Below are positions 18,313 to 44,905 of a stretch of 64,000 nt of DNA, piece by piece. Source of the DNA: an uncultured Gammaproteobacteria bacterium (GTDB lineage: Bacteria > Patescibacteriota > Microgenomatia > 0-14-0-10-38-17); assembly GCA_964348895.1 (NCBI GenBank), contig CAYGEH010000001.1:182610-246609 (forward strand), written 5' to 3'. The notes under the pieces were generated by a model, which saw only the letters and a list, made by a program, of their open reading frames with translations, was not told the DNA's origin and made no database searches. The number at the start of each line of letters is the position of its first letter. Within the stretch, counting starts at the first letter, position 1. Both the position numbers and the translations under genes were made by a program.

Positions 18313-18846
18313 CTAATTGGCTAAAAAATCTTTCGGTTCAAGTTTTATAATTTCCTTTTCAGCATCAAAAACAGAAACTATCAGATTAACTCCAAAGTCG
18401 GCAATTTCTCCTGATTGAGTCTTTAAAATTTCTTCTTCTGCCCAAACATTAACCAGCCTCTGTTCATCTCTTCCTGTTAAAACATAATTAACACTAAATC
18501 CGCTATTAAAATCGGTTAAAATTAAACTTGGAAATTGCCCTCCACTGGTCATATTAATATAGTTCATTCTACTGTTTTTAACCTGACCAGCAAAAACTGC
18601 CAAAATTGGTGTGTTTTCTGGAACTTGGTAGCCAATTCCCAAATAGCTTCCGTCAACTTCAACTATTTTTCCCCTGGAACAATATTCTTGAGGTACTGGA
18701 CAATGAAGAAACTTTTTTATTGTGCTTCTTTCAATAAAAAGCTCGTCTTCTCGAGCGGGACGAAAAATAAAAAAATAATAAGAGGCTAAAAAACCAATAG
18801 TAGCCAACAACAAAATAAGGAAAAACAAAACTAAAGGCCGTTTCAC
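18313..18846 (-). CDS. Small N-terminally membrane-anchored protein, unknown function
   Basis: 177 aa; TM helix LVLFFLILLLATIGFLASYYFFIF; translationally coupled to the downstream Cys-rich protein gene. Confidence 0.5.
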   Translation of the reverse strand: MKRPLVLFFLILLLATIGFLASYYFFIFRPAREDELFIERSTIKKFLHCPVPQEYCSRGKIVEVDGSYLGIGYQVPENTPILAVFAGQVKNSRMNYINMTSGGQFPSLILTDFNSGFSVNYVLTGRDEQRLVNVWAEEEILKTQSGEIADFGVNLIVSVFDAEKEIIKLEPKDFLAN

Positions 18847-18890
18847 AGCTTTTTTAGTTTAGGAAAAAAAAACCTCTAAGTCAAGAGCTG

Positions 18891-20816
18891 TTATTGGTCT
18901 CTATCTAAACTAAAAACCAAAGCCTGATCAACTCTCAAAATACGCTCTAGAGAAAAACTATGTGGTCCCATCAGACTTGATGCCGTAAAAATAATCTGAC
19001 TTTCACTGTTTATGGAAATTCCTCTGCTAAACAAGCCTTCCTTTTCGATTTCAGTAAAGATAATTTCGTCAAAACTAACCTGCCTTGCTCCCCAATCTCC
19101 TAGATTAATCTCTTGCGCTGACTTAATTAAAAAACTTAAGCCATGATTAGCCCCCCTCAAATGCTTTTCTAGCAAATTCTCTGGTGTATCTATTGATATC
19201 GCGTAAAAACCTCTCTGTGGAGACCAAATAGCTCGAGTTTGCTCGATAAATGGAGAGCGAAATTTCGCCGTTGACGGTAACCCCCCAATTTCAACCCAAT
19301 AAAATGTTTTGTCAGAGCCTTCTTCCCATATTTTTATTCTTTCTCCTCTTGGGTCAAAATTAAAAGCCATCCGCCACTGGTCTTTTTCGATTGCCTCCGA
19401 CGTGTTAGTTTTTTCTAAAAGTTTTCTTCTAACTTCACTAGCCAAAGCTAACCCCTGTCCAGACGAAGTCCCAGTTTCATCATCAAATTCGAACAAGTAA
19501 CCAGCATATTCTCCTTCTTGCAGGTTGTAGGGGTTGTCCTTCTCTGCTCGGTAAATAACCTTCTCCTCTTCCCAACCAAGAATTAACCCCTCTACGCTTG
19601 GAGCCTTGGCCAATAGCTCTTCTGGAGAAAAAATTCTTTCCCATTTCCATTCGCCTTGTTCTATGTTGTATTTTGCTTGAGCAAGGTTTTTAAAATCTCC
19701 TGTTTCCTGATCCTGACTTTTTAAGATAAAGCTGGTTCTACCCTCTTCGTCGACTGTTTCCTCAAAATCCCAAACCGCAGGCATTTCCTCAAAGTGGGGG
19801 ACTATTGGGTTTTTGATCATCTCGCCATTTATTTGATCAACAAAAACCATTCCTACTTCTTTTCTAATTTCAGCAATTAGAGCTTCTCCTTCAATTTGGT
19901 TGAGGTTTAGTCGTGTTTCTTTCTGACCCTCGTTAAGAACGATCTGCTGGCTTTGAGAGTCAAATTGATAGCCATTGGCGACTAAAAGATTTTCCAGTGA
20001 AAGCGCATTTCTGTTTTCTGGATCAGCTGGAAAATGAGTGGGCAAAAGAGCTAAATAATGGCGAGGAACGCCACTTTCCCCTGAAGTCCGAAGATAGTCA
20101 GTAAAGGCAACTAAGACAGAGTTTAATTCTCCTCCGGGGGTATTTTTGTCAATGGTGATTTCCGTTGACGGCTTGGGTTCATTAAGCAAGCCCACCACGG
20201 TCATTTGGGTTCCTGAACGCAATAAAAAGCTTCGAGGAGTAATCCATTCTTTGAGCTCTGAAGCTTCTTGTTCTGCTTCAGAAGGAACCTCACTTAGAGT
20301 TAGTCGAGCCAAGGACAGTTCGGCCAATTGGGGAAAAATTACTTCTCCGCCTTGTTTTCCAGGAGCGAAAAATCCTTCCTCGCCTCGATAAGCTCCCAGA
20401 GAAACCAAATATTTTAATGGGTCAACTGATTTTTCTGGTAGGTGGGTAAATTTAATTGTTTCTCCCCAAGACTTGCTAACATAGTCTAAACCAAATTCAA
20501 CTAGTGATGTTTCCGCTTGGCCTTCTCCCACTCTTTCTCCTCCGCCGACGCCAACAAAAGCATTTCTAAGATATTCTTCAGTGATAGTTGTCCCTAAGAT
20601 TCCAATTACTTCTCTGGTAGGAGCTGGCTCAATGGTTGGAATCTTGGTAGGGGTAGGTTCTGGTGAAGCAATTACAGAGGTCTTGTCGACCTGTTCTGGC
20701 TGTCGTCCGCAACTGGAAGAAAGGGCGCCAACCACAATGGTCCCAGCAGCTCCCAAAAGGAACTCTCTTCTGGTCATTACTGGCCCTCTATTTAATACTT
20801 CCTTAGAGTTGGTCAT
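18891..20816 (-). CDS. Large secreted lipoprotein with twin-arginine (Tat) signal peptide, unknown function
   Basis: MTRREFLLGAAGTIVVGALSSSCGRQ combines the Tat motif RREFLL with a lipobox LSSSC; 641 aa; first gene of the three-gene operon. Confidence 0.55.
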   Translation of the reverse strand: MTNSKEVLNRGPVMTRREFLLGAAGTIVVGALSSSCGRQPEQVDKTSVIASPEPTPTKIPTIEPAPTREVIGILGTTITEEYLRNAFVGVGGGERVGEGQAETSLVEFGLDYVSKSWGETIKFTHLPEKSVDPLKYLVSLGAYRGEEGFFAPGKQGGEVIFPQLAELSLARLTLSEVPSEAEQEASELKEWITPRSFLLRSGTQMTVVGLLNEPKPSTEITIDKNTPGGELNSVLVAFTDYLRTSGESGVPRHYLALLPTHFPADPENRNALSLENLLVANGYQFDSQSQQIVLNEGQKETRLNLNQIEGEALIAEIRKEVGMVFVDQINGEMIKNPIVPHFEEMPAVWDFEETVDEEGRTSFILKSQDQETGDFKNLAQAKYNIEQGEWKWERIFSPEELLAKAPSVEGLILGWEEEKVIYRAEKDNPYNLQEGEYAGYLFEFDDETGTSSGQGLALASEVRRKLLEKTNTSEAIEKDQWRMAFNFDPRGERIKIWEEGSDKTFYWVEIGGLPSTAKFRSPFIEQTRAIWSPQRGFYAISIDTPENLLEKHLRGANHGLSFLIKSAQEINLGDWGARQVSFDEIIFTEIEKEGLFSRGISINSESQIIFTASSLMGPHSFSLERILRVDQALVFSLDRDQ

Positions 20817-27261: not shown

Positions 27262-28083
27262 ATGAAAAAGATTATTCTGCCAATTGCTGCAATACTAGTT
27301 GTCGGACTAGTAGGCCTTTCTTTTCGCCATTCTCTTTTTTCTGATCCCGGAGTTTTAGAAATCATTACCACCCCCTCAACTCAGGTTGTTATTAACGGAG
27401 AGGCTTTGGGAACAACCCCCTTCAAAAGAGAAATGTCTCCTCAAAGAGTCGAGGTTAAGCTTTTGTCTAGTGATGATGGTCAGCAAATTCTCTGGCAGGG
27501 AGGCGTTTCTGTTGTTTCTTCCGCACTTACTTTAATTAAATATCAATTTGAAAGCAGTCAACAGCAAAGTTATGGTGAAATACTTACTTTCAGTAAAATT
27601 CCTGACAAAAATAACGGAGCCTTGTTAGTTTCTTCTTTTCCAGACAGAGCAATTGTTAATCTTGACGGCGAAACCAAGGGTTATACTCCAATACTTTTAG
27701 AAAACGTCCCTTCTGGTCGACATAATTTAGAACTTAGCCTTGCTGGCCACGAAAACACTGTTATTGGACTCAATGTCGCCACTGGATTTCAACTCAATGC
27801 AGAAATAAAAATGGCTAAACTTAAAGAAGTGGTTGAAGAAGAAAATGTCAATTTACCAAGCGATCAAGAAAGGCTTGTAACTATTCTTGCCACCTCTACT
27901 GGCTGGCTAAGAGTAAGAAGCGGCCCTGGAACTCAGTTCCCAGAAACCGCTCGAATCAATCCAGGAGGACAATATCCCCTTTTAGAAGAAGAGGGTGACT
28001 GGCTAAAAATTGCCCTAGAAGAAGACAAAGAGGGGTGGATATCAGCCCAGTATGGAGAGATAGTTGAAGTAGAAAGTCTTTAA
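27262..28083 (+). CDS. Secreted PEGA-repeat protein with C-terminal SH3b domain
   Basis: Signal anchor; two PEGA-like repeats (VINGEALGTTPF; VNLDGETKGYTPILLENVPSGRHNLEL); C-terminal SH3_3-like region GWLRVRSGPG...GDWLKI. Confidence 0.6.
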   Translation: MKKIILPIAAILVVGLVGLSFRHSLFSDPGVLEIITTPSTQVVINGEALGTTPFKREMSPQRVEVKLLSSDDGQQILWQGGVSVVSSALTLIKYQFESSQQQSYGEILTFSKIPDKNNGALLVSSFPDRAIVNLDGETKGYTPILLENVPSGRHNLELSLAGHENTVIGLNVATGFQLNAEIKMAKLKEVVEEENVNLPSDQERLVTILATSTGWLRVRSGPGTQFPETARINPGGQYPLLEEEGDWLKIALEEDKEGWISAQYGEIVEVESL

Positions 28084-28139
28084 TTTTTTTTAAAGTAAAA
28101 ATCTATTCTTAAAAAAGAACAATTTTTCTTTCAACCCCA

Positions 28140-29222
28140 TTAGCTTTCGCCCCTACCTCTTCCTTTCTCAAAAAAAAGCTTAAACCAAGCCGAAAAAGCG
28201 ACCAAAATAACAAAAACCATTACTATGGCATAAAACTTCTGTTGGGAATTTAACGACAAAGCAATTATTCCTAAAACTAAAGACGAGAAGAGATAAAACA
28301 GAGCAATCGCTCGTTTGCTTAAGCCAAGATCTAAAAACTTATGGTGTAAATGGCCTCTATCTCCCCAAACTGGAGACTTTCCCTTAGACAGGCGTCTTAA
28401 AATGGCAATTAGAGCATCCATGGTTGGTATTCCCAAAACTAAAATCGCAGTCGCAACCTTTGCTCCAGAAAGAATCGCTAAAACACCTAAAAAAAATCCA
28501 GCCAAACTTTTTCCGCTATATCCTGGCATAATTTTTTGCGGATAAAAATTCCAGGGCAAGAAACCAAAATAAGCCCCAGAGACAGACGCCGACAAAACAA
28601 TGACCGGCCATTGGGTAACGTCAGCACTAAACCTTAGCCCTAGAACCGCCATTACCAAAGCAGCAATAAAAACAAAAGCTGGTAATTGACCATCTACTCC
28701 TGACGACCAGCCAACAACATTCATATTCCAAACCAACCAAAGAAGCCCAAAAAGGCTTGATAAAATCCACAAAGACCTTGTCTGGCCTAGAAATTCAAAA
28801 ATAAGCTGAGGTTGATCAAGACGAATTAGACCATTAAAGGGGTTGGTAATAAAAGCGATGCCAATTCCCGCCCCAACAACAGACAGAGCCGCCAAGCAAT
28901 TAAAAAACAATCTCAAATAGGGGTTTAAATTAAATTTATCATCAAATAAACCAACCACCAAGGTTATCAAAGCACCAATAAAGATTCCCCACCAGTGCTT
29001 GTCCATCGGCAACCAAAGAAAGCTAGTCAAAAAAACAGCCAAGAAAACTGGTAGGCCTCCGCCTCTAGGAACTGGATATTGGTGAACCACTTTAGGATGA
29101 TGGTGTTTCTTGGGGTCATCAATTCCAATCAGCTTCGTCCGCCAAGCCAGTATTATCGTTGCCTTGGTGAAAATAAAACTTAAAAGCAGTGAAACTAAAA
29201 ATGGACCAAAGAAGCGACTCAT
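28140..29222 (-). CDS. Polyprenol-phosphate HexNAc-1-phosphate transferase (WecA/TagO/MraY glycosyltransferase family 4)
   Basis: Motif DDPKKHHHPKVVHQYPVPRGGG (the WecA DxxxxRKxHxxPxPxxGG motif); 10-11 TM helices; 360 aa. Confidence 0.7.
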   Translation of the reverse strand: MSRFFGPFLVSLLLSFIFTKATIILAWRTKLIGIDDPKKHHHPKVVHQYPVPRGGGLPVFLAVFLTSFLWLPMDKHWWGIFIGALITLVVGLFDDKFNLNPYLRLFFNCLAALSVVGAGIGIAFITNPFNGLIRLDQPQLIFEFLGQTRSLWILSSLFGLLWLVWNMNVVGWSSGVDGQLPAFVFIAALVMAVLGLRFSADVTQWPVIVLSASVSGAYFGFLPWNFYPQKIMPGYSGKSLAGFFLGVLAILSGAKVATAILVLGIPTMDALIAILRRLSKGKSPVWGDRGHLHHKFLDLGLSKRAIALFYLFSSLVLGIIALSLNSQQKFYAIVMVFVILVAFSAWFKLFFEKGRGRGES

Positions 29223-29229
29223 TAATAAG

Positions 29230-29607
29230 CTAAATAATTATAAAAATAATTTGAGCCAAGGTAAAAAAAGCTAAAAAAGCAAAGACTGTTGCTGTCCAAA
29301 TTAAAATTTGCACCAAAAATGGCGAGTCAAAAAATAGACCACTCAAAATAAAATTAAAAATCATAATAAACAAGGACAGGGCTGGCAAAATTAATAATAA
29401 CCAGGGAGAAGCTAATTGGGGATCGCCCCATGGTCGGCTGTAAAAAAGAGGTACTTGAGGTGGTAGCTTGGCCTGAAAAGTAAAAAACAAAACCACCATT
29501 GCCAACACTAAGGCAATTCCAATAAACAAGGCAATTTTAACCTGTTTTTGGTTAAAAACTAGTCCCGGCAACAGGCGTGTTTGGCGTGATAACTTTGGAG
29601 CAATCAA
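29230..29607 (-). CDS. Small polytopic membrane protein, unknown function
   Basis: 125 aa, 3-4 predicted TM helices. Confidence 0.4.
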   Translation of the reverse strand: MIAPKLSRQTRLLPGLVFNQKQVKIALFIGIALVLAMVVLFFTFQAKLPPQVPLFYSRPWGDPQLASPWLLLILPALSLFIMIFNFILSGLFFDSPFLVQILIWTATVFAFLAFFTLAQIIFIII

Positions 29608-29637
29608 ATTGTTTAGGTTTTTTTAATAAAACTTTAT

Positions 29638-31131
29638 CTATAGAGAAAGGTGGCTCCAAACCTGTAGTGAGCCAAACTGCTTAATTGGGTAGTAGTTTTC
29701 AAATAAAAAAGCTAGCAAGTCCGCAAACGAATACCTGTGGTCAAGATCATAAATAATTATTCTTGGAGGATTATTTTTAATGGCAGATAAAACTTCTTGA
29801 TAGCGATTAAAGTCGTGAATGTGATAAGCCACGGTGTAGCGACCAACTGGCAAGCGCCGAGAAAGAGCATATATATTTGGCTCATTACCCCAAATAAAAA
29901 ATCTTTCTCTGGGCAGCAAGAAGTCGTTAAGAAAACTGGCTACTTGATAGTTGCGCTCAGTTTTTTGATCAAACCAATTCAAATAATCGGCCTGAGTTCT
30001 TCTGCCTAAACTAAATTCAATAAAGTTTTGATAATAACCAATCACTGGATATGTATAAAACTGATAATAGAAAAAGCCTGCTAACAACAAAACTATTGGT
30101 GATAAACCAAAAAGAAAATAGGTTATTTTTTCCTTATTTTTTAAAAAAGAAAGTAAAAAGCCGATTAGCAAAACAAGCGGTGCTGCCACCTGAAGAAGAT
30201 AATGAGGATAGGGTCTTGAAGACATAAAAGCACCAAAAATAGCTAAAATTAACCATAATAAAACCAATAAAAACAGCTGTTTCTTAAGTAAAAGTTTTCT
30301 TTTTAGAAAAATAGCCCCTAAAACCAACAATAAAATCAACCCTCGCCAAAATAGCTGCTTAGACAATAAGCTGGTTGCCTCTTGATCCATCCAGGCAAAA
30401 AGATAGGGAAGATTCTGTAACCAGGCCGATTCAAGATAAAACGATAAGGCTCCTGGCTCTAGGGCATAAAGAACAAAAGTCAAGCCAACAGGAATAACAA
30501 AGCCAACCACTAAGGGCCACTTGTTTTTGATTTCAGCAAAAAACTGTTCTCGTTTTGAAAAAGCTAGTAAAAAAGAAAAAATGAGTAGTGACGACCAATC
30601 TAAAAATGGCGGACTTTTAAATAAAAAGGCCACTCCAAACATCAGACCAGAACGCCAAAATCTTTTTTCAATGAAAAAATAAAATCCTAAAATGACTAAA
30701 CCGATAAAGAAATGTTCTGCATTCGTAATCGTTCCTTCAAATAAAGGAAGTGAGGTTAGTAAAATAAAAACTGAAGTTAATAGCAAAGCTAAGCCATCTT
30801 CTTTAAAAAATTTTTTAGCCAATTTAAAAAAAACAACGGTTGTTCCCATTAGCCAAACCATAAGAATAAACCTAAACCAAAAAACGCTTCCCGCAATAGC
30901 CGCTACCCAATAAAGCAGGGGGGGTTTATTGTCATGAATGTCCCGATAAAGAACCTGTCCTTGGCGAATTGCCTGACCTAGGGTTAGGTAAATTCCTTCG
31001 TCCCCATACCAAAAAGGTTCAAAAAGAGATGGAAGCCTAAGTAATAAGGAAATAAACAAGAGAATAACTAAGAAAGCGGGTAAGTCTTTAGTTCTTTCCT
31101 CTAATTTTGCCAGCCAAAAAGAAGGTCTCAT
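29638..31131 (-). CDS. GT-C fold glycosyltransferase (ArnT/PMT family-like)
   Basis: Polytopic membrane protein with a first-loop FWYGDEGIY (DE) motif typical of GT39/GT83 GT-C enzymes; 497 aa. Confidence 0.55.
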   Translation of the reverse strand: MRPSFWLAKLEERTKDLPAFLVILLFISLLLRLPSLFEPFWYGDEGIYLTLGQAIRQGQVLYRDIHDNKPPLLYWVAAIAGSVFWFRFILMVWLMGTTVVFFKLAKKFFKEDGLALLLTSVFILLTSLPLFEGTITNAEHFFIGLVILGFYFFIEKRFWRSGLMFGVAFLFKSPPFLDWSSLLIFSFLLAFSKREQFFAEIKNKWPLVVGFVIPVGLTFVLYALEPGALSFYLESAWLQNLPYLFAWMDQEATSLLSKQLFWRGLILLLVLGAIFLKRKLLLKKQLFLLVLLWLILAIFGAFMSSRPYPHYLLQVAAPLVLLIGFLLSFLKNKEKITYFLFGLSPIVLLLAGFFYYQFYTYPVIGYYQNFIEFSLGRRTQADYLNWFDQKTERNYQVASFLNDFLLPRERFFIWGNEPNIYALSRRLPVGRYTVAYHIHDFNRYQEVLSAIKNNPPRIIIYDLDHRYSFADLLAFLFENYYPIKQFGSLQVWSHLSL

Positions 31132-31239
31132 AAATAGATAGTCTTGTTAAACCATAAAAGGAACTCAAGGTCAAGAAAAAGAAAGTCAAAAACTATAGCT
31201 TTTTTTAGTTTTAGTTTTTAATTTTGACTCTTCTTGGGA

Positions 31240-32727
31240 TTACACTTTTTCCGTTACCCGATATCCTAAATATTTTCCCAGCATTAAACGGGTGTGGGCA
31301 TCGATACCTGGTAAGGCTCCAAAAAAGAACCCTGAAATTGGCATTAGCAAAAATTCAAAAGGAATCAATAATGCTCGTAGGCGAGAAACCTCTTTGGGTC
31401 TTTTTGGCCTCTGCTTACCATTAACCCAAATAACTGCCGCCAGCGATAATAAGGTTAAGGAAAGAATCGCTGAAGAAAAATTAGCCATCATATATCCCAT
31501 TGACGACCTAGTAAATTCAGGATTAATTAGGGCTGGAATATTAACTCCCAGAGTAATGATGAACCAGTGAACTGGCCAGAGAAAATGATCACGCAAAACA
31601 TGTAAAACCCGAACTGTTTTGCTCCAAAAAGAAATTTTTCCCGAAGTTAAGTAGCGATAGATAATATAGGCATCATCAATCGCCCCCCAAGCCCAGCGCT
31701 TATATTGCTCATATTGATTAACTAATGTTTTCCAAGTCGTAGTTGATTCAGCGGCATCAACAAAAACAGGTAATGAAATTGGATCAACCTCTACTTGACC
31801 TTGTTTATCAAAATAAGCCTTAAAAAAAATTCGATAATCTTCGGGAATTATGTCTGGATCCCAATAGCCCACCTCATCAATTAACCTTAAAGAAGCAGAA
31901 TAATTAGCACAAGTAATAATTCGATAAGAGTGAACAGAAAAGGCAAAATGACGAACAGAGCTAAAAGTGTTACTGATTCTGGTTAAGGCGGGAAGATTCC
32001 AAAAATTATTGTAAAACAAAACTACTGGTTGCCAAAACCTTAAATATCGCTTGGGATTGTCTAAAAAGTGATAGGCAAGGGCAGAAAAATATTTTGGATG
32101 ATAAACATGATCGGCATCACAGCTTGATATTGTTAAATAATTAATGTCGTAGTTAAGTTCATCAACTAAGTACTTTTTCGTCTCCAATGCTGCCCAGCGC
32201 TCATTAGAGGACTTCCCCGCCATTTCTCCGGGTTGGAGCTGATGGGTTGTCACCAAGAAATGACCAAATTTAGAACCAAATTCTTTTTTCAAAACCCCAA
32301 CCTTTCGCTCTCTTTCTTTAACATCTTCTTTTGCTTCGGTAGCCAAAACAACAATAATATTTTTTAGAGGAAAATCTTGTTTAGCAATCGCCTGAAGAGT
32401 TCTCTGAAGAATGTGGAGAGGTTCTTTATAGGTAACTATCACTATAATATGATGAACTTTCTTCCAATCTCCAAAACCCTTAGCCTCCCCCAACCAGTCA
32501 GTCATTTTAGAGGCTTCCATTTTATAGTGACCCATAACCGCACCAATACCTAAGAAAGCCGATTGATATAGCCAATAAAGTCCATAGAAAAGAATAAAAT
32601 AGGCTACCGCTAAAGAAGAAACAAACGATCCCCAAAATGGAAAAAGAATTAAATTCCAAGAAACAAACCCAGGCAAAATCTCTAATAAGCGAATCACTAT
32701 TCGACGATTTTTTTCTAAAAATTTCAT
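31240..32727 (-). CDS. Membrane-integrated processive GT2 glycosyltransferase (cellulose/chitin/hyaluronan-synthase-like)
   Basis: GT-A core with DAD(H) and QYEQYKRWAWG (QxxRW) motifs; N- and C-terminal TM helices. Confidence 0.7.
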   Translation of the reverse strand: MKFLEKNRRIVIRLLEILPGFVSWNLILFPFWGSFVSSLAVAYFILFYGLYWLYQSAFLGIGAVMGHYKMEASKMTDWLGEAKGFGDWKKVHHIIVIVTYKEPLHILQRTLQAIAKQDFPLKNIIVVLATEAKEDVKERERKVGVLKKEFGSKFGHFLVTTHQLQPGEMAGKSSNERWAALETKKYLVDELNYDINYLTISSCDADHVYHPKYFSALAYHFLDNPKRYLRFWQPVVLFYNNFWNLPALTRISNTFSSVRHFAFSVHSYRIITCANYSASLRLIDEVGYWDPDIIPEDYRIFFKAYFDKQGQVEVDPISLPVFVDAAESTTTWKTLVNQYEQYKRWAWGAIDDAYIIYRYLTSGKISFWSKTVRVLHVLRDHFLWPVHWFIITLGVNIPALINPEFTRSSMGYMMANFSSAILSLTLLSLAAVIWVNGKQRPKRPKEVSRLRALLIPFEFLLMPISGFFFGALPGIDAHTRLMLGKYLGYRVTEKV

Positions 32728-35409: not shown

Positions 35410-35973
35410 GTGTCTAAAATAAAAGGGGAAATTTCACTACTACCAAAGGAAAAAGATGAAAACCGACTCGAACAAGCCTCTGACTGGATAATAACTACTG
35501 GTCGGTGGGTTGTTGTTTTTACCCTTTTCTTTGTTTTACTGGCCTTTCTGTCTCGTTTTTGGCTAGACCAAAGAATTGCCGACCTCTACGCCCAAAGCGC
35601 GCAAAGAATTGCTATCGTTGAAGCCTCTAAAGACTTTGAGGAAGATTTTAGATTACTTCAAAATCAGTTTGATAGAATCCAAGCTTTAGATCAAGAAAAG
35701 CCAAATCAGGCCGAACAGGTTAAAAAAATAATTGCAATTCTGCCGGAAAGAATTAACCTGACCTCAATTAACATTGTTGACGATCAAGTTGATTTCACTA
35801 TTATTTCCCAAAACGAGCTTGATTTAAATCATTTTTTTCAAAATTTAATTCTTTGTCCATACCTTGATCAAATTAATATTGCTAACATTTCCACCAAAAC
35901 ATTTGGTATCGAAACAGAAATTTCTGTTAACGCTAGATTTGTCGATGTTATTAGCGAGACCAACAAACAATGA
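35410..35973 (+). CDS. PilN-like type IV pilus assembly protein
   Basis: N-terminal ISLLPKEK...R (INLLP-type PilN signature), a single TM helix and a periplasmic domain; 187 aa; likely GTG start. Confidence 0.55.
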   Translation: MSKIKGEISLLPKEKDENRLEQASDWIITTGRWVVVFTLFFVLLAFLSRFWLDQRIADLYAQSAQRIAIVEASKDFEEDFRLLQNQFDRIQALDQEKPNQAEQVKKIIAILPERINLTSINIVDDQVDFTIISQNELDLNHFFQNLILCPYLDQINIANISTKTFGIETEISVNARFVDVISETNKQ

Positions 35974-36611
35974 TTAATCTACCCAAGCTTTCTTATCGCA
36001 ATGCTTTGTCTCAAATACCAATTCCAGTGCGAGAAAAAAGTCGCAAATGGGCTTCAACAATAGCAACTCTCTTTTTGACTACTTTCTTTATTGCTTTTGC
36101 CATCAGACCCACTGTGATTACTATTGTTGAACTTTTGGCCGAAATTAGAGCTCGAGAGGAATTAAACCAAAAGCTTCAAGAAAAAATAGAGCAAATTATG
36201 GTGGCTCAAAAACTATATAACCAAATATATCCTCGACTTTATCTTCTCGACCAAGCTTTACCGACAAATCCTAAATTTGCCTATTTCTCGCAAACTCTAG
36301 AAAGCAATCGAATAGAGGCTAATTTAAACTTGGAAACTCTTAATTATTCTTCAATAGTTTTAACTGAAATGGCCGACACTAAAACAGAAGAAAAAAATCA
36401 AGAATTTGTCTTTACCACGGGTCTTTCTGGTCGCTATCACGACCTAAAGAGTTTTCTAGAAAATCTTTTTAACCAAAGAAGAATTATTTATATTAATAAT
36501 CTAAAGATTGACCAAAAGCAGAATAATCAACAAGGCGAGCAGGCCCAGGCTGACATCCTCCCCTTAACCATTACCATTGACGGCGAAGCATTTTATTTGG
36601 GCAGTGAATAA
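35970..36611 (+). CDS. PilO-like type IV pilus assembly protein
   Basis: Short cytoplasmic N-terminus, TM helix, coiled coil (ELNQKLQEKIEQ) then a periplasmic domain; overlaps the pilN-like gene by 4 nt. Confidence 0.5.
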   Translation: MINLPKLSYRNALSQIPIPVREKSRKWASTIATLFLTTFFIAFAIRPTVITIVELLAEIRAREELNQKLQEKIEQIMVAQKLYNQIYPRLYLLDQALPTNPKFAYFSQTLESNRIEANLNLETLNYSSIVLTEMADTKTEEKNQEFVFTTGLSGRYHDLKSFLENLFNQRRIIYINNLKIDQKQNNQQGEQAQADILPLTITIDGEAFYLGSE

Positions 36612-37035
36612 CAACATCGAACAAACAAACAATAAAAAGTCGAACAAAAACAACGATTGGTTAATAATCGCCATTTTTGTTTTACTTTGCGCTCTGGTTT
36701 GGGTGGCTACAAGCTCTTATCACAGCTTTGTTGATAAAAAAGAGGTGGTAATTAGACAGGAGCTACTTGTTCCTCTTCAGCCAAAAATTGATCCATCTTT
36801 ATTTGATACTTTAGAGGCTCGGATTCACCCCGACGAAGAGAAGTTAATAGAAATTCTTTCTGAAAACAGTCCCAACATAATTGGTTTGGACGAAGAAACA
36901 GAAGAAACTGAAATGGACCCCATTTCGCCTCGACCAATAGAAACCAGAGAAACAGTCGACCCGCTAGACGGATCAGCTCCTCCGCCAACAACAAATGAAA
37001 TAAATCAAGAAGAGTTGCCGGCTCTAGCTCCATAA
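36577..37035 (+). CDS. Small membrane-anchored acidic protein, unknown function (PilP-position)
   Basis: TM helix LIIAIFVLLCALVWVA; acidic, Pro-rich C-terminus; 152 aa. Confidence 0.4.
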   Translation: MTAKHFIWAVNNNIEQTNNKKSNKNNDWLIIAIFVLLCALVWVATSSYHSFVDKKEVVIRQELLVPLQPKIDPSLFDTLEARIHPDEEKLIEILSENSPNIIGLDEETEETEMDPISPRPIETRETVDPLDGSAPPPTTNEINQEELPALAP

Positions 37036-37067
37036 AAGAAAGAGGCATAATTTCCCTAAAAAAAGCA

Positions 37068-38525
37068 ATGAGGCTTAAACCCGCCAAAACCATTCCCAGT
37101 ATTATTGGCCTTTTGCTTTTAACCGTTCTTGTCTTTGGCGGTGTTTATCTTACTCAAAGACTAGGCAGAACCACCACTCAAATTGCTGCCTCGCGCCAAC
37201 CCTTATCAGTCAGGGTGGCCAATATTACTGATCGAGCCGCTGTCGTTTACTGGCTAACAGAAGAAGAAACAGAGGGAAGTATTAAGCTTAACGATAAAAT
37301 TTATCTTGATAATCGAGACAGGGTTTCTTCTCAGGCAAAAAAACGCTTTACTCATTATGTCGCCATTGATGATCTTCTTCCAGGCGAAACCTATCATTTT
37401 GCCATTATCAGCCAAGGGCAAATTCAACAAAAAGACAGCTTTCAGTTTACCACTGCCCAAGCCTTGATTGGTCCTCCTGCAGAAGTTGCCGATTTGGCTT
37501 TTGGTATTATTTTGGACAATCAACAAAATCAGCCCTTGGCTGACACTCTTGTTACTCTTTCTCTGCCTGGAGCCACTAATCTGGCTAGCCTAACTGACGA
37601 CAATGGTTTTTGGTCTATTCCCTTGAGCACTGCTTATCAGAAAGATTTATCTAGGCCAATTAGTTATGATCGAGAAAAAGAGGTTCTTGAAATCCTAGTT
37701 GAATCTCGTCCTGGATTAAGCTCAACCGTTATCACTAATACTGGTAATGATCATCCAGTTCCTCCGATAATCATTGGAAAGTCATATGATTTTTCCCAAA
37801 ATCCTCCCACCCCAAGACAGCAACCAGAAGATTTTGATTGGACTAACCCTCTAGAAACAGTTGAAGAAATAAACAACTCTTCTTTTTTTCTTCCCCAAGA
37901 GCAAATTGACCCAAAAGAAGCTCAAGCTGTAATCAATATCAACGATCCCCAAGAGGGAGAAACTGTTTTTACCGCTAAACCAGAATTTTCTGGACGAGGT
38001 CCGGCTAATCAAACTATTAAAGTTACTTTAGAATCGCCTAAAAAGTTTGAGGAGGAGATTGTTGTTTCTGCCTTTGGCTCGTGGCAATGGAGTCCACCAG
38101 AACACCTTACCCCCGGAAGACACACTCTCACTGTTGAGTATCACGACGAAAACAACATTCTTCATGTTGTCAGTAGAACCTTTATAGTTCAAGCCTCTAG
38201 TATTTCTCCTTCGCCAACACCAATAGTGCCTCTACCAACCATCCCCCCTCAAGTTACCCCAACTCCTACTCCAGTTCGAACTACTCCAACCCCTACTCCA
38301 GTTCGCACTACCCCAACTCCTACTCCAGTTCGCACTACCCCAACTCCTACTCCAGTTCGAACTACTCCAACCCCTACCCCTTTGCCAACAATAACACCAA
38401 TAATTAAAGAAGCCACTGCTCCAGCCGAAATAGTTTCTGGCAACTTGACGCCCTTGGTTATTCTTGCTATTCTGGGCTTAGGCTTAATTTATTTTGCTTT
38501 TGTTGTTCATCAAAAAAAACACTAA
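37068..38525 (+). CDS. Surface protein with Fn3-like domain, 4x PTPTPVRTT repeat linker and C-terminal TM anchor with basic tail
   Basis: Signal anchor; Fn3-like VANITDRAAVVYW...YHFAI; tandem 27-nt repeats; C-terminus TPLVILAILGLGLIYFAFVVHQKKH. Confidence 0.55.
   Translation: MRLKPAKTIPSIIGLLLLTVLVFGGVYLTQRLGRTTTQIAASRQPLSVRVANITDRAAVVYWLTEEETEGSIKLNDKIYLDNRDRVSSQAKKRFTHYVAIDDLLPGETYHFAIISQGQIQQKDSFQFTTAQALIGPPAEVADLAFGIILDNQQNQPLADTLVTLSLPGATNLASLTDDNGFWSIPLSTAYQKDLSRPISYDREKEVLEILVESRPGLSSTVITNTGNDHPVPPIIIGKSYDFSQNPPTPRQQPEDFDWTNPLETVEEINNSSFFLPQEQIDPKEAQAVININDPQEGETVFTAKPEFSGRGPANQTIKVTLESPKKFEEEIVVSAFGSWQWSPPEHLTPGRHTLTVEYHDENNILHVVSRTFIVQASSISPSPTPIVPLPTIPPQVTPTPTPVRTTPTPTPVRTTPTPTPVRTTPTPTPVRTTPTPTPLPTITPIIKEATAPAEIVSGNLTPLVILAILGLGLIYFAFVVHQKKH
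38259..38366 (+). repeat. Perfect 27-bp tandem repeat, 4 copies, encoding PTPTPVRTT
   Basis: ccaactcctactccagttcgaactact repeated four times with only synonymous variation. Confidence 0.8.
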
Positions 38526-39928
38526 TGCTTCCCGCTTCAAATAAACCATCACCGCCACCTCTTCCTCCAGAAAACTACAAGAATCAAATTGCCGTTAACT
38601 TTAGCTCTATTGACAATAATCAAGTCAAAACCCAACCCTCTCAAGGCTCCAAACAAAAAACAAAAAAAATATTTATAATCATCGCTGCTATTTTTTTGGC
38701 ACTAATAGCGCTAATGGGAGCTCTTTTTTTCATTCGAGAAAGACAAGACATCAGAGAAGAAGCAGCAACAACTGGACGCTTAATTTGTATGCCTGTTGAC
38801 AACAATGGAAATATCACTAATGAAAAATATCAACATGATCGAATGTTGGTTAAAAACGAAACAAATAGAGACATCCAAATCAAAATTCAAACTAATCTTT
38901 GTCCATATCAAGGACAAAATCCTCAAATCGGATATCGCTGCGATGACTATGTTGGCGCTTTCCCTTATATTGTTCGGGCGGGAACTCAGGTAATTTTACC
39001 CAATCCCGATACCGAATCATGGTTGTCACAGGGCTGGGTTGGTTGTCAAAAAATTGGTCAAATGGACATTCAAAAAGATAAAGATCACTACATTCACATT
39101 GGTGTTGACCCCAACACTATTCCAGACTGCTTTAACACTGTTGACAATCGCGTTTGGGAAGGGGGAATTGCTTTTACTATCAAGGCTAATTCTGCCTCCT
39201 GTTGTCCAAAAATGGAAGTAGCCGTCTCCCCTAATAATCCTAGACCAGGACAAGAGGTTGTTGTCAGAGCCTCTAGTCCATCTCCCCTAGTTTGTGCTGA
39301 ACTAGTTAATTTTTCTGGCTTGGCCGGAAAACCAACTTGGATTGGCATGGACGGAAATTATAACTGGTCCTGGAGGGCAACCGCTGGAAACACCCCCGGA
39401 CAATACAGTCTTACCTTTAGGGGCAATACTAGGGATTCTGGTCAAGGAGTCTGTCCGGGTCGGGCGATCGGTGACTGGTGTCAAGTAACTGGCAACTTTG
39501 GTGTTGGCGTTGCCCCAACTCCAACCCCAACTCCAACTCCCACTCCGACAATCTTTCCGACTCCCACTCCAACCCCCACCCCAACACCTCCCCAATACGA
39601 CTACAACTGCCATACTATTAATGTTTACGATGCTAATCGAAATTTAATTAATCGTAACGACTTAAAAAACCTAAAAGCAGGAGACTTAATTTACATCGGA
39701 GTGGTCGCCAACAGTGGCCATCCAATCCACCAAATTAATAAAGCCAGGATTCGTGTTAATCGTAATTATTGGCTGGCTCAAGATGAAACTAGCGAAAAAT
39801 TAACTACCAGCGCTAATCATTTAACTGAATTTGTTAAAAGCTACATTATTCCTGAAGGATTATTGAATTTTAAGATTGAGGCAGAGGTTCACCTTAACGC
39901 TCCCAGTCCAGTCGGAGGCTGGCGTTAG
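38525..39928 (+). CDS. Membrane-anchored extracellular Cys-containing protein with a (TP)n linker and a C-terminal beta-rich domain
   Basis: Pro-rich cytoplasmic N-terminus (PSPPPLPPENY), TM helix, Cys-containing ectodomain, [12 protein letters not shown] linker; its ATG overlaps the upstream stop (TAATG). Confidence 0.5.
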   Translation: MLPASNKPSPPPLPPENYKNQIAVNFSSIDNNQVKTQPSQGSKQKTKKIFIIIAAIFLALIALMGALFFIRERQDIREEAATTGRLICMPVDNNGNITNEKYQHDRMLVKNETNRDIQIKIQTNLCPYQGQNPQIGYRCDDYVGAFPYIVRAGTQVILPNPDTESWLSQGWVGCQKIGQMDIQKDKDHYIHIGVDPNTIPDCFNTVDNRVWEGGIAFTIKANSASCCPKMEVAVSPNNPRPGQEVVVRASSPSPLVCAELVNFSGLAGKPTWIGMDGNYNWSWRATAGNTPGQYSLTFRGNTRDSGQGVCPGRAIGDWCQVTGNFGVGVAPTPTPTPTPTPTIFPTPTPTPTPTPPQYDYNCHTINVYDANRNLINRNDLKNLKAGDLIYIGVVANSGHPIHQINKARIRVNRNYWLAQDETSEKLTTSANHLTEFVKSYIIPEGLLNFKIEAEVHLNAPSPVGGWR

Positions 39929-39940
39929 TTAAAAATTATT

Positions 39941-40414
39941 ATGACATCTAAAAAAACCCTAAAGACCATTGTTATTATTGTTGCCAGCCTCTTGTTGTTA
40001 GGACTAACTGTTTTCTTGGCTAGTCAAATTTATCAAACTCGCCAAGAACGTCTGGCTCCCACTGAACCAAGGGCGGTCAGCCCCACTTGCACTCTGGCTT
40101 TTACTATTTTGCCACCAACCCCAACCCCCACTCCGACACCTCCTCCAATCGTAACGCCTACTCCTACTCCAACCCCAACTCCCACTCCGACACCCTCTCC
40201 GACTCCGACTCCAACCCCAACCCCCACTCCAACACCTCCTCCAATCGTGACGCCTACTCCTACTCTTACCCCAATCCCAACACCCTCCCCAATCGTAACA
40301 CCTCCTCCTACTCCACCAACCACTCTGCCAGAAGCTGGAAGCATTTTGCCAACCATTGGAGTAGCCTTGGGCGGATTATTTTTGGGAATACTGGGACTCC
40401 TCCTCGTTTTTTAA
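39941..40414 (+). CDS. Small Thr/Pro-rich surface protein with C-terminal LPEAG + hydrophobic segment (sortase-signal-like)
   Basis: N-terminal signal anchor, about 90 aa of TP repeats, then [29 protein letters not shown] at the C-terminus. Confidence 0.5.
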
Positions 40415-40427
40415 AAAATTTTAAAGG

Positions 40428-41657
40428 GTGTTATCTGGAAAAAAAATTGCTATTGTTGGCGCTGGAATCAGTGGTTTATACTTGGCTTATCGTTTAAGCT
40501 CTAAGAACAAAGTTATTGTTTTTGAAAAAAATAACCAAGTCGGGGGATTAGCCTCAACTTTTCAATCCGACAACTGGAGTTGGCCGCTAGAAAGCTTTTA
40601 TCATCATTTTTTCACTTCTGATAAAAAATTAATAAGTCTTTTAAAAGAATTATCTTTATCGTTTTTTTGGCAAAAACCAACAACCGCTATTTGGCAAAAC
40701 GAAAAAGTTAATGATTTTTCTTCACCCCAAGATTTGTTTACTTTTCCCGAAATAAGTTTTTTTGACAAGGTTCGCCTGGGAGGAACACTGGGTTTATTAA
40801 AAATAATTCCTAATTATCGCCTAATTCCTAAAAAAGAAGCCAGTAAATTGTTCCCCTTGCTTATGGGTAAAACATCCTATCAAAAAATTTGGGAGCCGTT
40901 GATGCGAGGAAAGTTTGGTTCTTTTCAAAACAGGATTCCCGCCGTTTGGCTTTGGGCTAGAATAAAAAAAAGATCAACCTCTCTTGGTTATCCCAAGGGA
41001 GGGTTTAGTCAAATAACCAATTGCTTGGTTCAAAAAATTAAAACTCAAGGCGGTCAAATAAAAACTAATTTTCCAATCACTAGGGCTACTCAATTGGCTG
41101 GTTTTGATAAAATCATTTTTACTACCCCAAAAATAACTTTCCAACAAATTTTTAAAGAAAAGCCTCTTTGTCAAGTTGCTTACCTGGCAAGCTTAAACTT
41201 AATTATTTCAAGTCCCCAGCCACTTTTTGAAGACAGTCTGTATTGGCTCAATATTACTGACCCCTCTTTTCCTTTCGTGGCAATAATTAATCACTCTGGC
41301 TTGGTTTCTTCTAAAAAATACAATAACAGTTTTCCAATTTATCTTGGCGGATACTATCAACAAAACGATCCCATTATGAAAGAATCAGCTCAAGAAGTTT
41401 TTACTAAATTCAATCCGTTTTTAAAAAGAATTAATCCTAAATTTAATCCCCAAAACTGTCAGTTCTTTCTAAACAAAAACTTATGGGCTCAACCAATTGC
41501 TGATCTTAATCAGCCCCAACCTCATCCTTCGTTTAAAACGAAATATCAAAACGTTTTCTTGGTTAACATGGAACAAATTTATCCTTGGGACCGGGGAGTT
41601 AATTATGCTCTTGATTTGGCCGACAAGTTTTTGCACTCTGTTGCTCTTGTCTCTTAG
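40428..41657 (+). CDS. FAD-dependent oxidoreductase (amine-oxidase / UDP-galactopyranose-mutase-like Rossmann family)
   Basis: IAIVGAGISGL dinucleotide-binding motif followed by VGGLAST; 409 aa. Confidence 0.55.
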   Translation: MLSGKKIAIVGAGISGLYLAYRLSSKNKVIVFEKNNQVGGLASTFQSDNWSWPLESFYHHFFTSDKKLISLLKELSLSFFWQKPTTAIWQNEKVNDFSSPQDLFTFPEISFFDKVRLGGTLGLLKIIPNYRLIPKKEASKLFPLLMGKTSYQKIWEPLMRGKFGSFQNRIPAVWLWARIKKRSTSLGYPKGGFSQITNCLVQKIKTQGGQIKTNFPITRATQLAGFDKIIFTTPKITFQQIFKEKPLCQVAYLASLNLIISSPQPLFEDSLYWLNITDPSFPFVAIINHSGLVSSKKYNNSFPIYLGGYYQQNDPIMKESAQEVFTKFNPFLKRINPKFNPQNCQFFLNKNLWAQPIADLNQPQPHPSFKTKYQNVFLVNMEQIYPWDRGVNYALDLADKFLHSVALVS

Positions 41658-41676
41658 TTGATTTAAAATATGACTA

Positions 41677-42588
41677 ATGCTAAGGGCAAAAACTATTCTT
41701 GCTTCTTTAAGGCCGTATCAGTGGATTAAAAATCTTGCCATTTACGCCGCTCTTCTTTTTACTGGCTATCTCTTCGATGAAAACCACTTTTTGATTACCA
41801 CCGCAGGATTTGTCATTCTTTGTTTGCTCTCTTCTGCTTCTTATTTACTAAATGACATCGTTGATGTTGCTCGAGATCGTCTTCATCCTATTAAGAAAAA
41901 TCGACCTATTGCCACAGGGGAATTATCTGTTAATACCGCTTTTCAAGTTTCCGTGGGCTTGTTTATTTTTGGCCTAACAGCCGCCTTTCTGCTTAGTCGA
42001 GGATTTTTTATCATTTCACTAGTCTTTGTCGTTCTTCATTTAATTTATTCTTTTTATCTCAAAAAGCATCCCCCTCTAGATATTTTGGCAATCGCTGCCT
42101 CTTTTGTTTTAAGAACTCTGGCTGGAACAACCCTAAGCGGGTTTCACATTCCTATCTGGTTAGTCTTCTCGGTTATCTTTCTTTCTCTTTTTATTGCCAG
42201 CGGCAAGAGACGGTCCGAATTATTAAAAAAAGGACAAGGAACTCGACCCGCCCTAAAAGAATATCGTCGAGAATTACTAAATTCTTATTTATCTATTTTT
42301 GGCACCGCCACTCTTATTTCTTACGCTATGTTTACTTTTACCGCTTCTCCCCCCGAGTTTAGCGATAAGCTCTTAAGATTTCTGCTATATAACTATCCCC
42401 AAACGGTTGACAGAAAGTGGTTAACGCTCTCTGTTCCTTTTGTTATTATTGGTCTAATGCGTTATGCCCAATTAGTTTTTTTGGCTCAAGAGGGGGAAGC
42501 TCCAGAGAAAACGATTAAAGACACCTATTTAATTTTAAGTGTTTTGGGTTGGGGAGCGAGTATTTTTGCCATCATTTATGTCTTCTAG
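41677..42588 (+). CDS. UbiA-family polyprenyl-phosphate transferase (decaprenyl-phosphate phosphoribosyltransferase-like)
   Basis: NDIVDVARDRLHPIKKNRP (NDxxDxxxD) motif, about 8 TM helices; 303 aa. Confidence 0.65.
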   Translation: MLRAKTILASLRPYQWIKNLAIYAALLFTGYLFDENHFLITTAGFVILCLLSSASYLLNDIVDVARDRLHPIKKNRPIATGELSVNTAFQVSVGLFIFGLTAAFLLSRGFFIISLVFVVLHLIYSFYLKKHPPLDILAIAASFVLRTLAGTTLSGFHIPIWLVFSVIFLSLFIASGKRRSELLKKGQGTRPALKEYRRELLNSYLSIFGTATLISYAMFTFTASPPEFSDKLLRFLLYNYPQTVDRKWLTLSVPFVIIGLMRYAQLVFLAQEGEAPEKTIKDTYLILSVLGWGASIFAIIYVF

Positions 42589-44200: not shown

Positions 44201-44248
44201 AGAAGTAGAACCAAAAAAAACCTTGTTGAATGACTTACAACGCTTTTA

Positions 44249-44833
44249 TCAGGCAATAGGTGTTTGGGTAAGCTTTTTCAAGGCTTCTTCTATGGAAGAA
44301 ATCACCACAATATCTTTTCGTTTGTTTTCTGCTTTTTGCCTCCAACCAGGAATCAACCAGAAAAGTTTTGCTTTAGTTGAAACAGCTAATTTTTCCAATA
44401 CTTCTAGGTCATCGTCAATAAAAACATCAAGCCCTTCTGTGTTTATCGCCAAAGATTTAAACTGAATCGGATCTTGGTCTTCTTTATTAATAACAATTTG
44501 GCTAAATAAGTTGGTTAAATTGTTGCACTCCAACCAGTCTAGGGTTAATTGTTTTAAAAAGCTAAATCTGGCAGTAATTAAAAAAAGCTGAAAATCCCCA
44601 AGATTAGACCAGGTCTTGATTTTATTCTTATCAGAAAAAGATATTCTTCTTAAATAATTAATCGTTTTTAAAACTAGCTTCTCCCACCTATTTTTAGGAT
44701 AGAAATGGCTCATTCCTCCATTCGCAATTAATCCACTTTCTTTTTGTTTCCTTATCTTAAACCAAAAATAATCCAAACAGTGTCGTGCTAAAACTCCGTC
44801 TAAATCAAAACCAACTTTTATCGTTGCTGTCAT
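44249..44833 (-). CDS. HAD-superfamily hydrolase (nucleotidase/phosphatase-like)
   Basis: N-terminal GFDLDGVLA (DxDGV HAD motif I); 194 aa. Confidence 0.5.
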   Translation of the reverse strand: MTATIKVGFDLDGVLARHCLDYFWFKIRKQKESGLIANGGMSHFYPKNRWEKLVLKTINYLRRISFSDKNKIKTWSNLGDFQLFLITARFSFLKQLTLDWLECNNLTNLFSQIVINKEDQDPIQFKSLAINTEGLDVFIDDDLEVLEKLAVSTKAKLFWLIPGWRQKAENKRKDIVVISSIEEALKKLTQTPIA

Positions 44834-44905
44834 TTTCTGGTAGTCAGTTTAACATACCAACAGCACCTTTTTTAATCAAGCCAAATCAATTACAATAAAG
44901 CCTAA

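Follow-up and report, generated by a model that had tools for sequence, protein, structure and literature searches.

The window analysed here, a stretch of 64,000 nucleotides from contig CAYGEH010000001.1, carries on its minus strand, directly downstream of metG, a compact block of four genes: a family 2 glycosyltransferase (GT2), a transferase of the GT-C fold, a small membrane protein (TM125) and a transferase of the WecA/MraY family (GT4). All these parts belong to known superfamilies. On balance, and with moderate confidence, we read the block as a lineage-conserved module for a polyprenyl-phosphate-based envelope glycan or glycoconjugate, with a beta-linked chain that the GT2 would provide and probably also export. 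This reading is built on the catalytic motifs and predicted folds of the enzymes, on the conservation of the block across Microgenomates and on its association with a UbiA-family gene. The genes are the following:

34143-32737, minus strand: metG, upstream of GT2
32727-31240, minus strand: GT2, 495 residues (Pfam Glyco_trans_2_3)
31131-29638, minus strand: GT-C-fold membrane protein, 497 residues (AlphaFold model and Foldseek)
29607-29230, minus strand: TM125, a membrane protein of 125 residues with three transmembrane (TM) helices, between GT-C and GT4
29222-28140, minus strand: GT4, a WecA/TagO-like polyprenyl-phosphate sugar-1-phosphate transferase of the superfamily of polyprenyl-phosphate N-acetylhexosamine-1-phosphate transferases (PNPT), 360 residues (Pfam PF00953)

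Read 5' to 3' on the minus strand, the order is metG, GT2, GT-C, TM125 and GT4, with all genes co-oriented and separated by 9, 108, 30 and 7 bp, respectively; given the 9-bp gap, metG and GT2 probably share one transcript. Each member of the block has thousands of homologues and the AlphaFold models of GT2 and GT-C are confident, which argues that these open reading frames (ORFs) are real genes and not chance. A previous inspection of the letters alone (hereafter the sequence-only reading) had described a set of three co-oriented glycan enzymes next to metG. The genes, motifs, coordinates and orientation that it quoted are all present on the minus strand, and its family calls were borne out, by Pfam for the WecA-like PNPT, by the structural model and its D44-E45 motif for the GT-C with a DE loop, and by fold and motifs for the synthase-like GT2 with QxxRW. 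That is, the three enzymes are there as described, while a fourth gene, TM125, and a linked UbiA gene had been overlooked.

Enzymes of the block

As judged from its motifs and its predicted structure, the GT2 looks like a synthase-type enzyme, with a cellulose-synthase core cut right after the gating loop. It matches Pfam Glyco_trans_2_3 with 44.9 bits (cut-off 27, E 1.5e-11), and its AlphaFold (AF2) model, built from 30 homologues, has a pLDDT (predicted local distance difference test) score of 86. In the model, two helices (residues 8-36 and 38-75) precede a GT-A domain (92-323), which is followed by an interface helix carrying QxxRW (331-361), by two TM helices (409-439 and 449-483) and by a gating-loop-like tail. 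The best Foldseek match is the hyaluronan synthase (HAS) of Chlorella virus (7sp7, E 7.5e-9, TM-score 0.54-0.57); BcsA, with significant matches to structures 4p00 and 5ej1, chitin synthases (Chs1) and PcManGT, a membrane mannosyltransferase of archaea, come next. The soluble family 2 enzymes TarS and TarP rank lower among the matches, and no GtrB or DPMS structure is found in the top 50. Searches of PDB sequences with the single sequence or with a profile were uninformative, fold comparison alone having worked for this protein.

Profile-profile alignment with hhalign points in the same direction. The GT2 profile aligns with E. coli PgaC over nearly its full length (residues 36-485 versus 14-422, E 8.7e-5), with the DxD, TED and QxxRWAxG motifs of PgaC in register with those of the GT2; this is the only full-length profile alignment that was obtained. 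With full or truncated E. coli BcsA (EcBcsA) the alignment covers the N-terminal 90 columns only (E about 1e-5), and with ArnC, a polyprenyl-phosphate GT2, nothing aligns beyond DxD. The sequence-only reading had set its processive synthase against a DPM/GtrB-like enzyme. A GT2 of the GtrB/DPM type is ruled out by the lack of alignment with ArnC, by the full-length alignment with PgaC and by HAS, BcsA and Chs being the best fold matches.

The conservation of the motifs was counted in 86 sequences, that is, 12 close homologues and 74 full-length representatives, down to 27% identity:

32110-32118, minus strand: DxD (D204-A-D206, in CDADH); D204 in 86/86 sequences, D206 in 85/86
31837-31842, minus strand: ED (E296-D297, in IPEDY), putative catalytic base; D297 in 84/86
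31693-31707, minus strand: QxxRW (Q341-Y-K-R344-W345, in QYEQYKRW); Q and R in 86/86, W in 66/86
31246-31263, minus strand: gating-loop-like Y489-R-V-T-E-K494, fitting FxVTxK; the protein ends one residue (Val) later

The first three of these motifs align, respectively, to DGD of PgaC and DCD of BcsA, to TED of both proteins, and to QRLRW of PgaC and QRIRW of BcsA. In addition, E102, E131, K172 and N175 are near-invariant. Glu131 (in LATE) occupies the position of the first UDP-binding Asp of BcsA (LDDG) and is Glu in 84 of the 86 sequences, a conservative change. The family also includes 19 members with QxxRH in place of QxxRW, which keep the Q, the R and the C-terminal gating-like Lys.

The C-terminal tail deserves separate consideration. 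In BcsA and CesA8, the FxVTxK gating loop contacts UDP and is needed for activity (PMC10592267), and the fingerprint of GT2 beta-glucan synthases consists of D, D, D, QxxRW, KAG and QxP plus the FxVTxK loop (PMC6821405). In the GT2 family the corresponding pattern, [FY]xVTxK, is kept to different degrees at its positions ([FY] 84/86, V 62/86, T 70/86, K 85/86). It lies about 148 residues past QxxRW, versus 124 in EcBcsA (FNVTAK at 617), and a motif of FxVTxK type is absent from PgaC and ArnC. Shuffling the GT2 sequence produces the pattern in 1.4% of cases, and among 69 long ORF segments of the window only the GT2 has it. As the hhalign alignment with BcsA does not go beyond the N-terminal 90 columns, the proposed equivalence with its gating loop is drawn from the motif and from its order and spacing.

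Compared with characterised synthases, the GT2 shares with BcsA, CesA, CrdS and BgsA a GT-A domain between TM helices, together with TYxEP, a KAG-like GKxSN, DxD, QxP, ED and QxxRW on the interface helix, an FxVTxK-type motif after QxxRW and a significant fold match. It differs from these enzymes in its length of 495 residues, in having two and not four N-terminal TM helices, in lacking TM7/8, in Glu131 and in a sequence similarity that is marginal. Following a suggestion of the sequence-only reading, a PilZ/c-di-GMP domain was sought in the GT2 by a Pfam scan, which gave no match, the protein ending at residue 495; no BcsB-like neighbour is present at the locus either. PgaC/PgaD (IcaA/IcaD) resemble the GT2 in overall size and architecture and offer a precedent for a small membrane partner. 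Unlike PgaC, however, the GT2 has FxVTxK, and it scores only 24.5 bits on the PgaC_IcaA equivalog TIGR03937 (cut-off 422.3). The class I HAS of Chlorella virus and vertebrates and the chitin synthases provide the closest structures, with near-identical length and helix order, although identities are 11-14% and TM-scores moderate, and the gating motif of HAS and Chs is WGTR/KG, not FxVTxK (PMC10592267).

At the other end of the block, the GT4 is, by its sequence, an atypical WecA-like PNPT whose scores are well under both the wecA and the mraY equivalog cut-off. It matches Glycos_transf_4 (PF00953) with 77.8 bits (cut-off 27, E 1.2e-21), and reaches 76.3 bits on TIGR02380 wecA (cut-off 326) and 43.2 bits on TIGR00445 mraY (cut-off 192). 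Likewise, a family hidden Markov model (HMM) built from the window protein and 62 orthologues (63 sequences) gives 74.7 bits to E. coli WecA (EcWecA) and 40.3 bits to E. coli MraY (EcMraY), and searches of PDB sequences gave nothing useful. The protein contains IDDPKKHHHPKVVHQYPVPRGGG at residues 34-56. In common with WecA, TagO and GPT, it has the N-terminal stretch DxPxxxKxHxxxxPxxGG, D94/D95 of the DD motif, D177 as the second Asp of DGxDG, and HxHH, here HLHH (H291-H294). Unlike WecA and MraY, it is altered at two sites:

28518-28520, minus strand: Y235, replacing the Mg2+-binding Asp of 'FMGD' (EcWecA D217, EcMraY D267)
28701-28703, minus strand: S174, replacing the first Asp of DGxDG (WecA D156); most relatives have Lys here

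The replacement by Tyr235 is family-wide and lies inside an invariant QKIMPG context. The Asp of 'FMGD' binds Mg2+ in MraY and DPAGT1 (PMC5039524, PMC6218659). Since the DPAGT1 mutant D252A keeps 7% activity and D252N increases activity five-fold (PMC6218659), the change from Asp to Tyr is unusual and not necessarily inactivating. In other words, the WecA-like initiating transferase of the sequence-only reading holds as a family assignment and has to be qualified as a non-canonical enzyme, with two aspartates replaced.

For the GT-C, structure is again the main guide. Its AlphaFold model (pLDDT 92) consists of about 11-13 TM helices and a C-terminal alpha/beta domain of ~100-130 residues. The best Foldseek match is ArnT (5f15, E 1.3e-6, TM-score 0.52), followed by STT3, PglB, ALG12, ALG6, DPY19, PIG-M and PimE. 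The window protein has no Pfam match and no match to PDB sequences, even as a profile; no solved GT-C enzyme matches it significantly in sequence. Among its homologues, 6/32 match PMT_2, 2/32 GT87 and 1/32 PMT in Pfam, and precomputed annotations place PF27757 on some of them. With ArnT, PMT, Emb/Aft and TfpW the GT-C shares, besides the fold, acidic residues in its first outer loop:

30997-31002, minus strand: D44-E45 (in YGDEGIY), first extracytoplasmic loop of GT-C; invariant in 32 homologues

In the model the motif sits in the loop that joins TM1 (19-36) to the following TM helix, and a weak hhalign alignment (E 0.014) pairs it with the DE in WQPDETRY of E. coli ArnT. An identity as oligosaccharyltransferase was considered and rejected, as WWD[YW]G occurs in 0/32 members and the C-terminal domain is small.

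TM125, located between GT-C and GT4, has a conserved loop, LPPxVPLFYxxPxGxxQL, between TM1 and TM2, and its K/R-rich N-terminus suggests that this loop faces outward. No Pfam or NCBIfam match was found for TM125, and hhalign detects no similarity to ArnE or PgaD. Moreover, it differs from PgaD in being tied to GT-C and GT4, not to the GT2.

A further enzyme, encoded on the opposite strand of the window, belongs to the same picture:

41677-42588, plus strand: UbiA-family enzyme, decaprenyl-phosphate phosphoribosyltransferase-like (NF008978, 195 bits, cut-off 207)

Decaprenyl-phosphate phosphoribosyltransferase is by a wide margin the best NCBIfam match. The window protein reaches at most 55 bits on other UbiA subfamily models and 155 bits on the generic 'UbiA family prenyltransferase' model (cut-off 351); on NF008977 (cut-off 234), the proteins of relatives reach 209 and 230 bits. 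Over the whole set, phosphoribosyltransferase models give 186-230 bits, other subfamilies at most 61 and the generic model 146-156. The UbiA gene lies directly downstream of GT4 in 55/59 loci, overlapping the 3' end of GT4 in three loci with gene calls. In this genome and in its closest relatives (L003 and L005), it has been relocated about 9-10 kb beyond the GT2.

This combination invites comparison with the mycobacterial pathway of decaprenyl-phosphate phosphoribosyltransferase (DPPR synthase; UbiA family, Rv3806c), given that in relatives the GT-C gene is coupled with that of a UbiA enzyme and of a small membrane protein; TM125 is not of the GtrA family. DPPR synthase, a GT-C and a small membrane protein also operate in the arabinosylation of Pseudomonas group IV pilin by TfpW, a precedent for pilin glycosylation (bioRxiv 10.1101/2020.04.19.049825). 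By analogy, the component logic of the block resembles both mycobacterial arabinogalactan assembly and Pseudomonas pilin arabinosylation, from which it differs by its membrane-embedded, synthase-type GT2. In the GtrA/GtrB/GtrC, CsbB/GtcA/YfhO and GacI/J/L systems, too, a GT2 is encoded close to a GT-C and to a small membrane protein; the block departs from them in a GT2 that is not GtrB-like and in a TM125 without GtrA or DUF2304 signature.

Conservation across Microgenomates

A profile scan of genomes detects relatives of the GT2 in at least 569 species-level genomes of the lineage. The sequence-only reading had regarded a processive beta-glycan synthase as unexpected in a reduced genome; this expectation is contradicted by the scan, since with such a distribution the glycan-assembly set is normal for Microgenomates and not an oddity. 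One Microgenomates genome has been reported to contain 29 glycosyltransferase genes (PMC7143001).

The organism belongs to the Microgenomates, near Shapirobacteria; a protein identical to its GT-C is encoded on a contig of 691 kb, and assemblies of Shapirobacteria, Woesebacteria, Blackburnbacteria and Chisholmbacteria contain related loci. Synteny was evaluated at the 80 best GT2 loci. In 52/56 of them the GT2 is followed, on its own strand, by GT-C and GT4, and this adjacency is kept to about 53% GT2 identity; the co-conservation on which the sequence-only reading had made its proposal depend is thus observed. Directly upstream of the GT2, metG is found in 67/69 loci with enough flank, and at the other end a convergent gene for a PEGA/SH3 protein lies on the opposite strand in 50/56. 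When the search is seeded from GT4 or GT-C homologues instead, the same block is recovered.

The members are not all held together equally. The distance between the matches to GT-C and GT4 is 346-611 bp in 63/63 loci having both, which fits a gene of the size of TM125, and an orthologue of TM125 is detectable in 44/56 loci, always between GT-C and GT4. The gap between GT2 and GT-C, in contrast, varies from 6 bp to 5.4 kb. Because the spacing of GT-C, TM125 and GT4 is constant while this gap is not, these three genes form the tightest unit, with the GT2 as a persistent neighbour. The gap houses a second PMT_2 GT-C in 18 loci. In 22 it contains a sugar-nucleotide dehydratase or epimerase of the extended short-chain dehydrogenase/reductase type, which mostly lies on the opposite strand; YfhO/PTPS-related proteins and ABC transporters occur in two loci each, and a NUDIX gene and a reverse transcriptase in one locus each. 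The last of these, an RVT_1 gene at 12433-13437 of locus L037, may be part of a group II intron or of a retron-like element.

Among distant GT2 relatives, two neighbourhoods differ from the common one, one having a GtrA-family neighbour and the other nothing informative. The distant member at locus L088 adjoins a GtrA_DPMS_TM gene, and a neighbour of 520 residues in the same locus has no detectable kinship to GT-C. Many contigs bearing the Microgenomates-specific block (L005, L010, L011, L013, L017, L028, L074 and others) are titled Gammaproteobacteria, 'Bathyarchaeia archaeon', 'Clostridia' or 'Alphaproteobacteria', titles that are probably placeholders or wrong taxonomy of metagenome-assembled genomes.

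Proposed pathway and rival explanations

The following scheme is drawn from the known roles of the families, on the basis of the observed family and fold assignments, catalytic motifs and gene order. The WecA-like PNPT would move a sugar-1-phosphate from a nucleotide sugar onto polyprenyl phosphate at the cytoplasmic face, yielding a lipid-linked primer, and the phosphoribosyltransferase-like UbiA enzyme would make a polyprenyl-phosphate-pentose donor. The GT-C, probably partnered by TM125, would take a sugar off a lipid-linked donor and hand it to an acceptor on the outer side of the membrane; TM125 and the linked UbiA gene point to polyprenyl-phosphate-pentose as this donor, and the acceptor could be either a wall polymer or the TP-repeat surface proteins encoded nearby. 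The GT2, in turn, would polymerise a UDP-sugar into a beta-linked chain and probably thread it through the membrane, with the [FY]xVTxK tail at its C-terminus serving as a gating loop over the active site. The processivity of the GT2 and the HexNAc specificity of the PNPT, both part of the sequence-only reading, are assumptions.

Several observations weigh against this scheme. The GT2 has only four predicted long TM helices, those corresponding to TM7/8 of BcsA being missing, so that a complete channel is hypothetical, and PcManGT (6yv7), one of its significant fold matches, is thought to be non-processive. The GT4 family as a whole is without both aspartates equivalent to WecA D156 and D217, which are also conserved in MraY. 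The UbiA scores narrowly miss the equivalog cut-offs (207 and 234), and neither DprE1 nor DprE2, which belong to the mycobacterial pathway, was seen in the window or among the genes listed for loci L091-L093, no dedicated search having been made for them. In 22 loci an oppositely oriented gene parts the GT2 from GT-C, TM125 and GT4, so that the block is not always one operon. Finally, metG and a TrpR-like gene, functionally unrelated, are conserved neighbours as well, and adjacency alone is no proof of a pathway.

The most credible alternative, which we nevertheless consider somewhat unlikely, is protein glycosylation by way of a short lipid-linked oligosaccharide. Specifically, the PNPT would prime, a non-processive, PcManGT-like GT2 would add one or a few sugars, the glycan or lipid-linked monosaccharides would be flipped, and one or more GT-C enzymes would O-glycosylate the Thr/Pro-rich surface or pilus-associated proteins that are encoded a few kb away. 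Besides the fold match to PcManGT, the GT-C model is almost as close to STT3 and PglB as to ArnT, membrane proteins with TP repeats and PilN/O-like genes sit between the two glycan clusters of the window (see below), and the precedent of Pseudomonas TfpW ties pilin glycosylation to a GT-C and to a donor derived from DPPR synthase (bioRxiv 10.1101/2020.04.19.049825). Nonetheless, the GT2 carries the full synthase fingerprint, gating-loop-like motif included, and finds its best folds among processive synthases, while WWDYG is absent from the GT-C family (0/32).

It is also conceivable, although quite improbable in our judgement, that the arrangement reflects historical synteny only, the GT2 making a free exopolysaccharide and the PNPT, UbiA and GT-C enzymes building or decorating another wall polymer. 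The equal conservation of metG and the TrpR-like gene, for which no functional link is plausible, would be in line with such a separation, as would the distance of up to 5.4 kb between the GT2 and the GT-C unit, with oppositely oriented genes sometimes intervening, and the 4/56 loci in which the GT2 has neither GT-C nor GT4 within 10 kb. On the other hand, the inserts between GT2 and GT-C are almost all glycan-related, and adjacency persists in 52/56 loci down to about 53% GT2 identity.

A bolder version of the preferred module would be an undescribed surface coat of glycan or glycoprotein, which we regard as doubtful. Here the GT2 channel, completed by a partner or by oligomerisation, would extrude a beta-glycan, the GT-C enzymes would decorate or attach it outside the cell with polyprenyl-phosphate-pentofuranose donors made by the UbiA enzyme as a phosphoribosyltransferase of mycobacterial type, and the Asp-less PNPT would prime. 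If true, this would amount to an arabinogalactan-like logic in a lineage of the Candidate Phyla Radiation (CPR).

Lastly, it is extremely unlikely that the GT4 is the organism's MraY, that is, the lipid I synthase of peptidoglycan, unrelated to GT2 and GT-C: MurJ, Ddl and Mur-ligase genes do lie within 6 kb of it, its close homologues are named 'MraY family glycosyltransferase' by NCBI, and no second GT4 or canonical MraY is found in the 64-kb window or roughly 10 kb past either end, but the equivalog scores (43 bits on mraY, 76 on wecA), the preference of the family HMM for EcWecA, the WecA-like HLHH motif, the 3' linkage to a phosphoribosyltransferase-like UbiA gene in relatives and the essentially complete peptidoglycan pathways reported for CPR genomes (PMC7143001) all argue otherwise.

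With regard to precedents for the envelope glycan module, the libraries and literature searched contain no characterised system that matches the truncated BcsA-like GT2, the Asp-less PNPT and their association, and literature searches on CPR cellulose synthase, envelope glycosyltransferases and decaprenyl returned nothing specific. Very little has been learnt about the envelope chemistry of CPR/Patescibacteria, on which host attachment and phage interactions must depend. Outside the housekeeping genes, the block ranks with the most conserved gene sets of Microgenomates, and its four enzymes and the relocated UbiA are open to heterologous expression. Among enzymes of the cellulose-synthase type whose gating motif can be recognised, the GT2 would be one of the smallest, useful for the study of a minimal synthesis-translocation machinery, and the PNPT family offers a test of whether an 'essential' Mg2+-binding aspartate is dispensable.

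Other features of the window

The surroundings of the block include a convergent envelope protein, a group of TP-repeat proteins and a second set of glycan genes:

27262-28083, plus strand: envelope protein with PEGA (Pfam, 6e-12) and SH3_3 (7e-11) domains, convergent with GT4
37068-40414, plus strand: three membrane-anchored TP-repeat proteins, with (TPTPTPVRT)x5 and long TP runs
40428-41657, plus strand: FAD oxidoreductase (NF005560, 334 bits), adjoining UbiA, unrelated to DprE1/DprE2
42539-44200, plus strand: second GT-C (Pfam PMT_2, 3.7e-14; weak Agl23-like match), adjoining UbiA
44906-46942, plus strand: Chlor_Arch_YYY/DUF2298 membrane protein, in the second glycan cluster

Together with UbiA, the last three of these genes make up a second envelope-glycan cluster at 40428-46942 on the plus strand. 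Between the two clusters, at 35410-40414 on the same plus strand, PilN/PilO-like genes are followed by the TP-repeat proteins, which the sequence-only reading had correctly located a few kb away from the block. One of them, of 157 residues, is almost all TP. As a speculation, these proteins are candidate acceptors for O-glycosylation.

Promoter and terminator scans gave no signal above shuffled expectation. The AT skew of the plus strand is strongly positive (0.21-0.23) at 28001-32000, versus about 0 elsewhere in the window, and this interval coincides with the four minus-strand genes; the skew is most likely an effect of codon composition, the coding strand of these hydrophobic membrane proteins being rich in T.

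Elsewhere in the window, three consecutive ORFs of 868, 177 and 641 residues occupy 15706-20816 on the minus strand, none matching Pfam; the first, with a signal-like N-terminus and a very Cys/Gly-rich composition, is probably a secreted or surface protein. Further wall-related genes encode a FemAB-family peptidyltransferase (49009-50004), a glutamate racemase-like protein (50115-50927) and a GT-B enzyme of the Glycos_transf_1 family (53071-54207). A tyrosine integrase/recombinase (58152-59045) and a Dockerin-like repeat protein (60918-61997) are also encoded.

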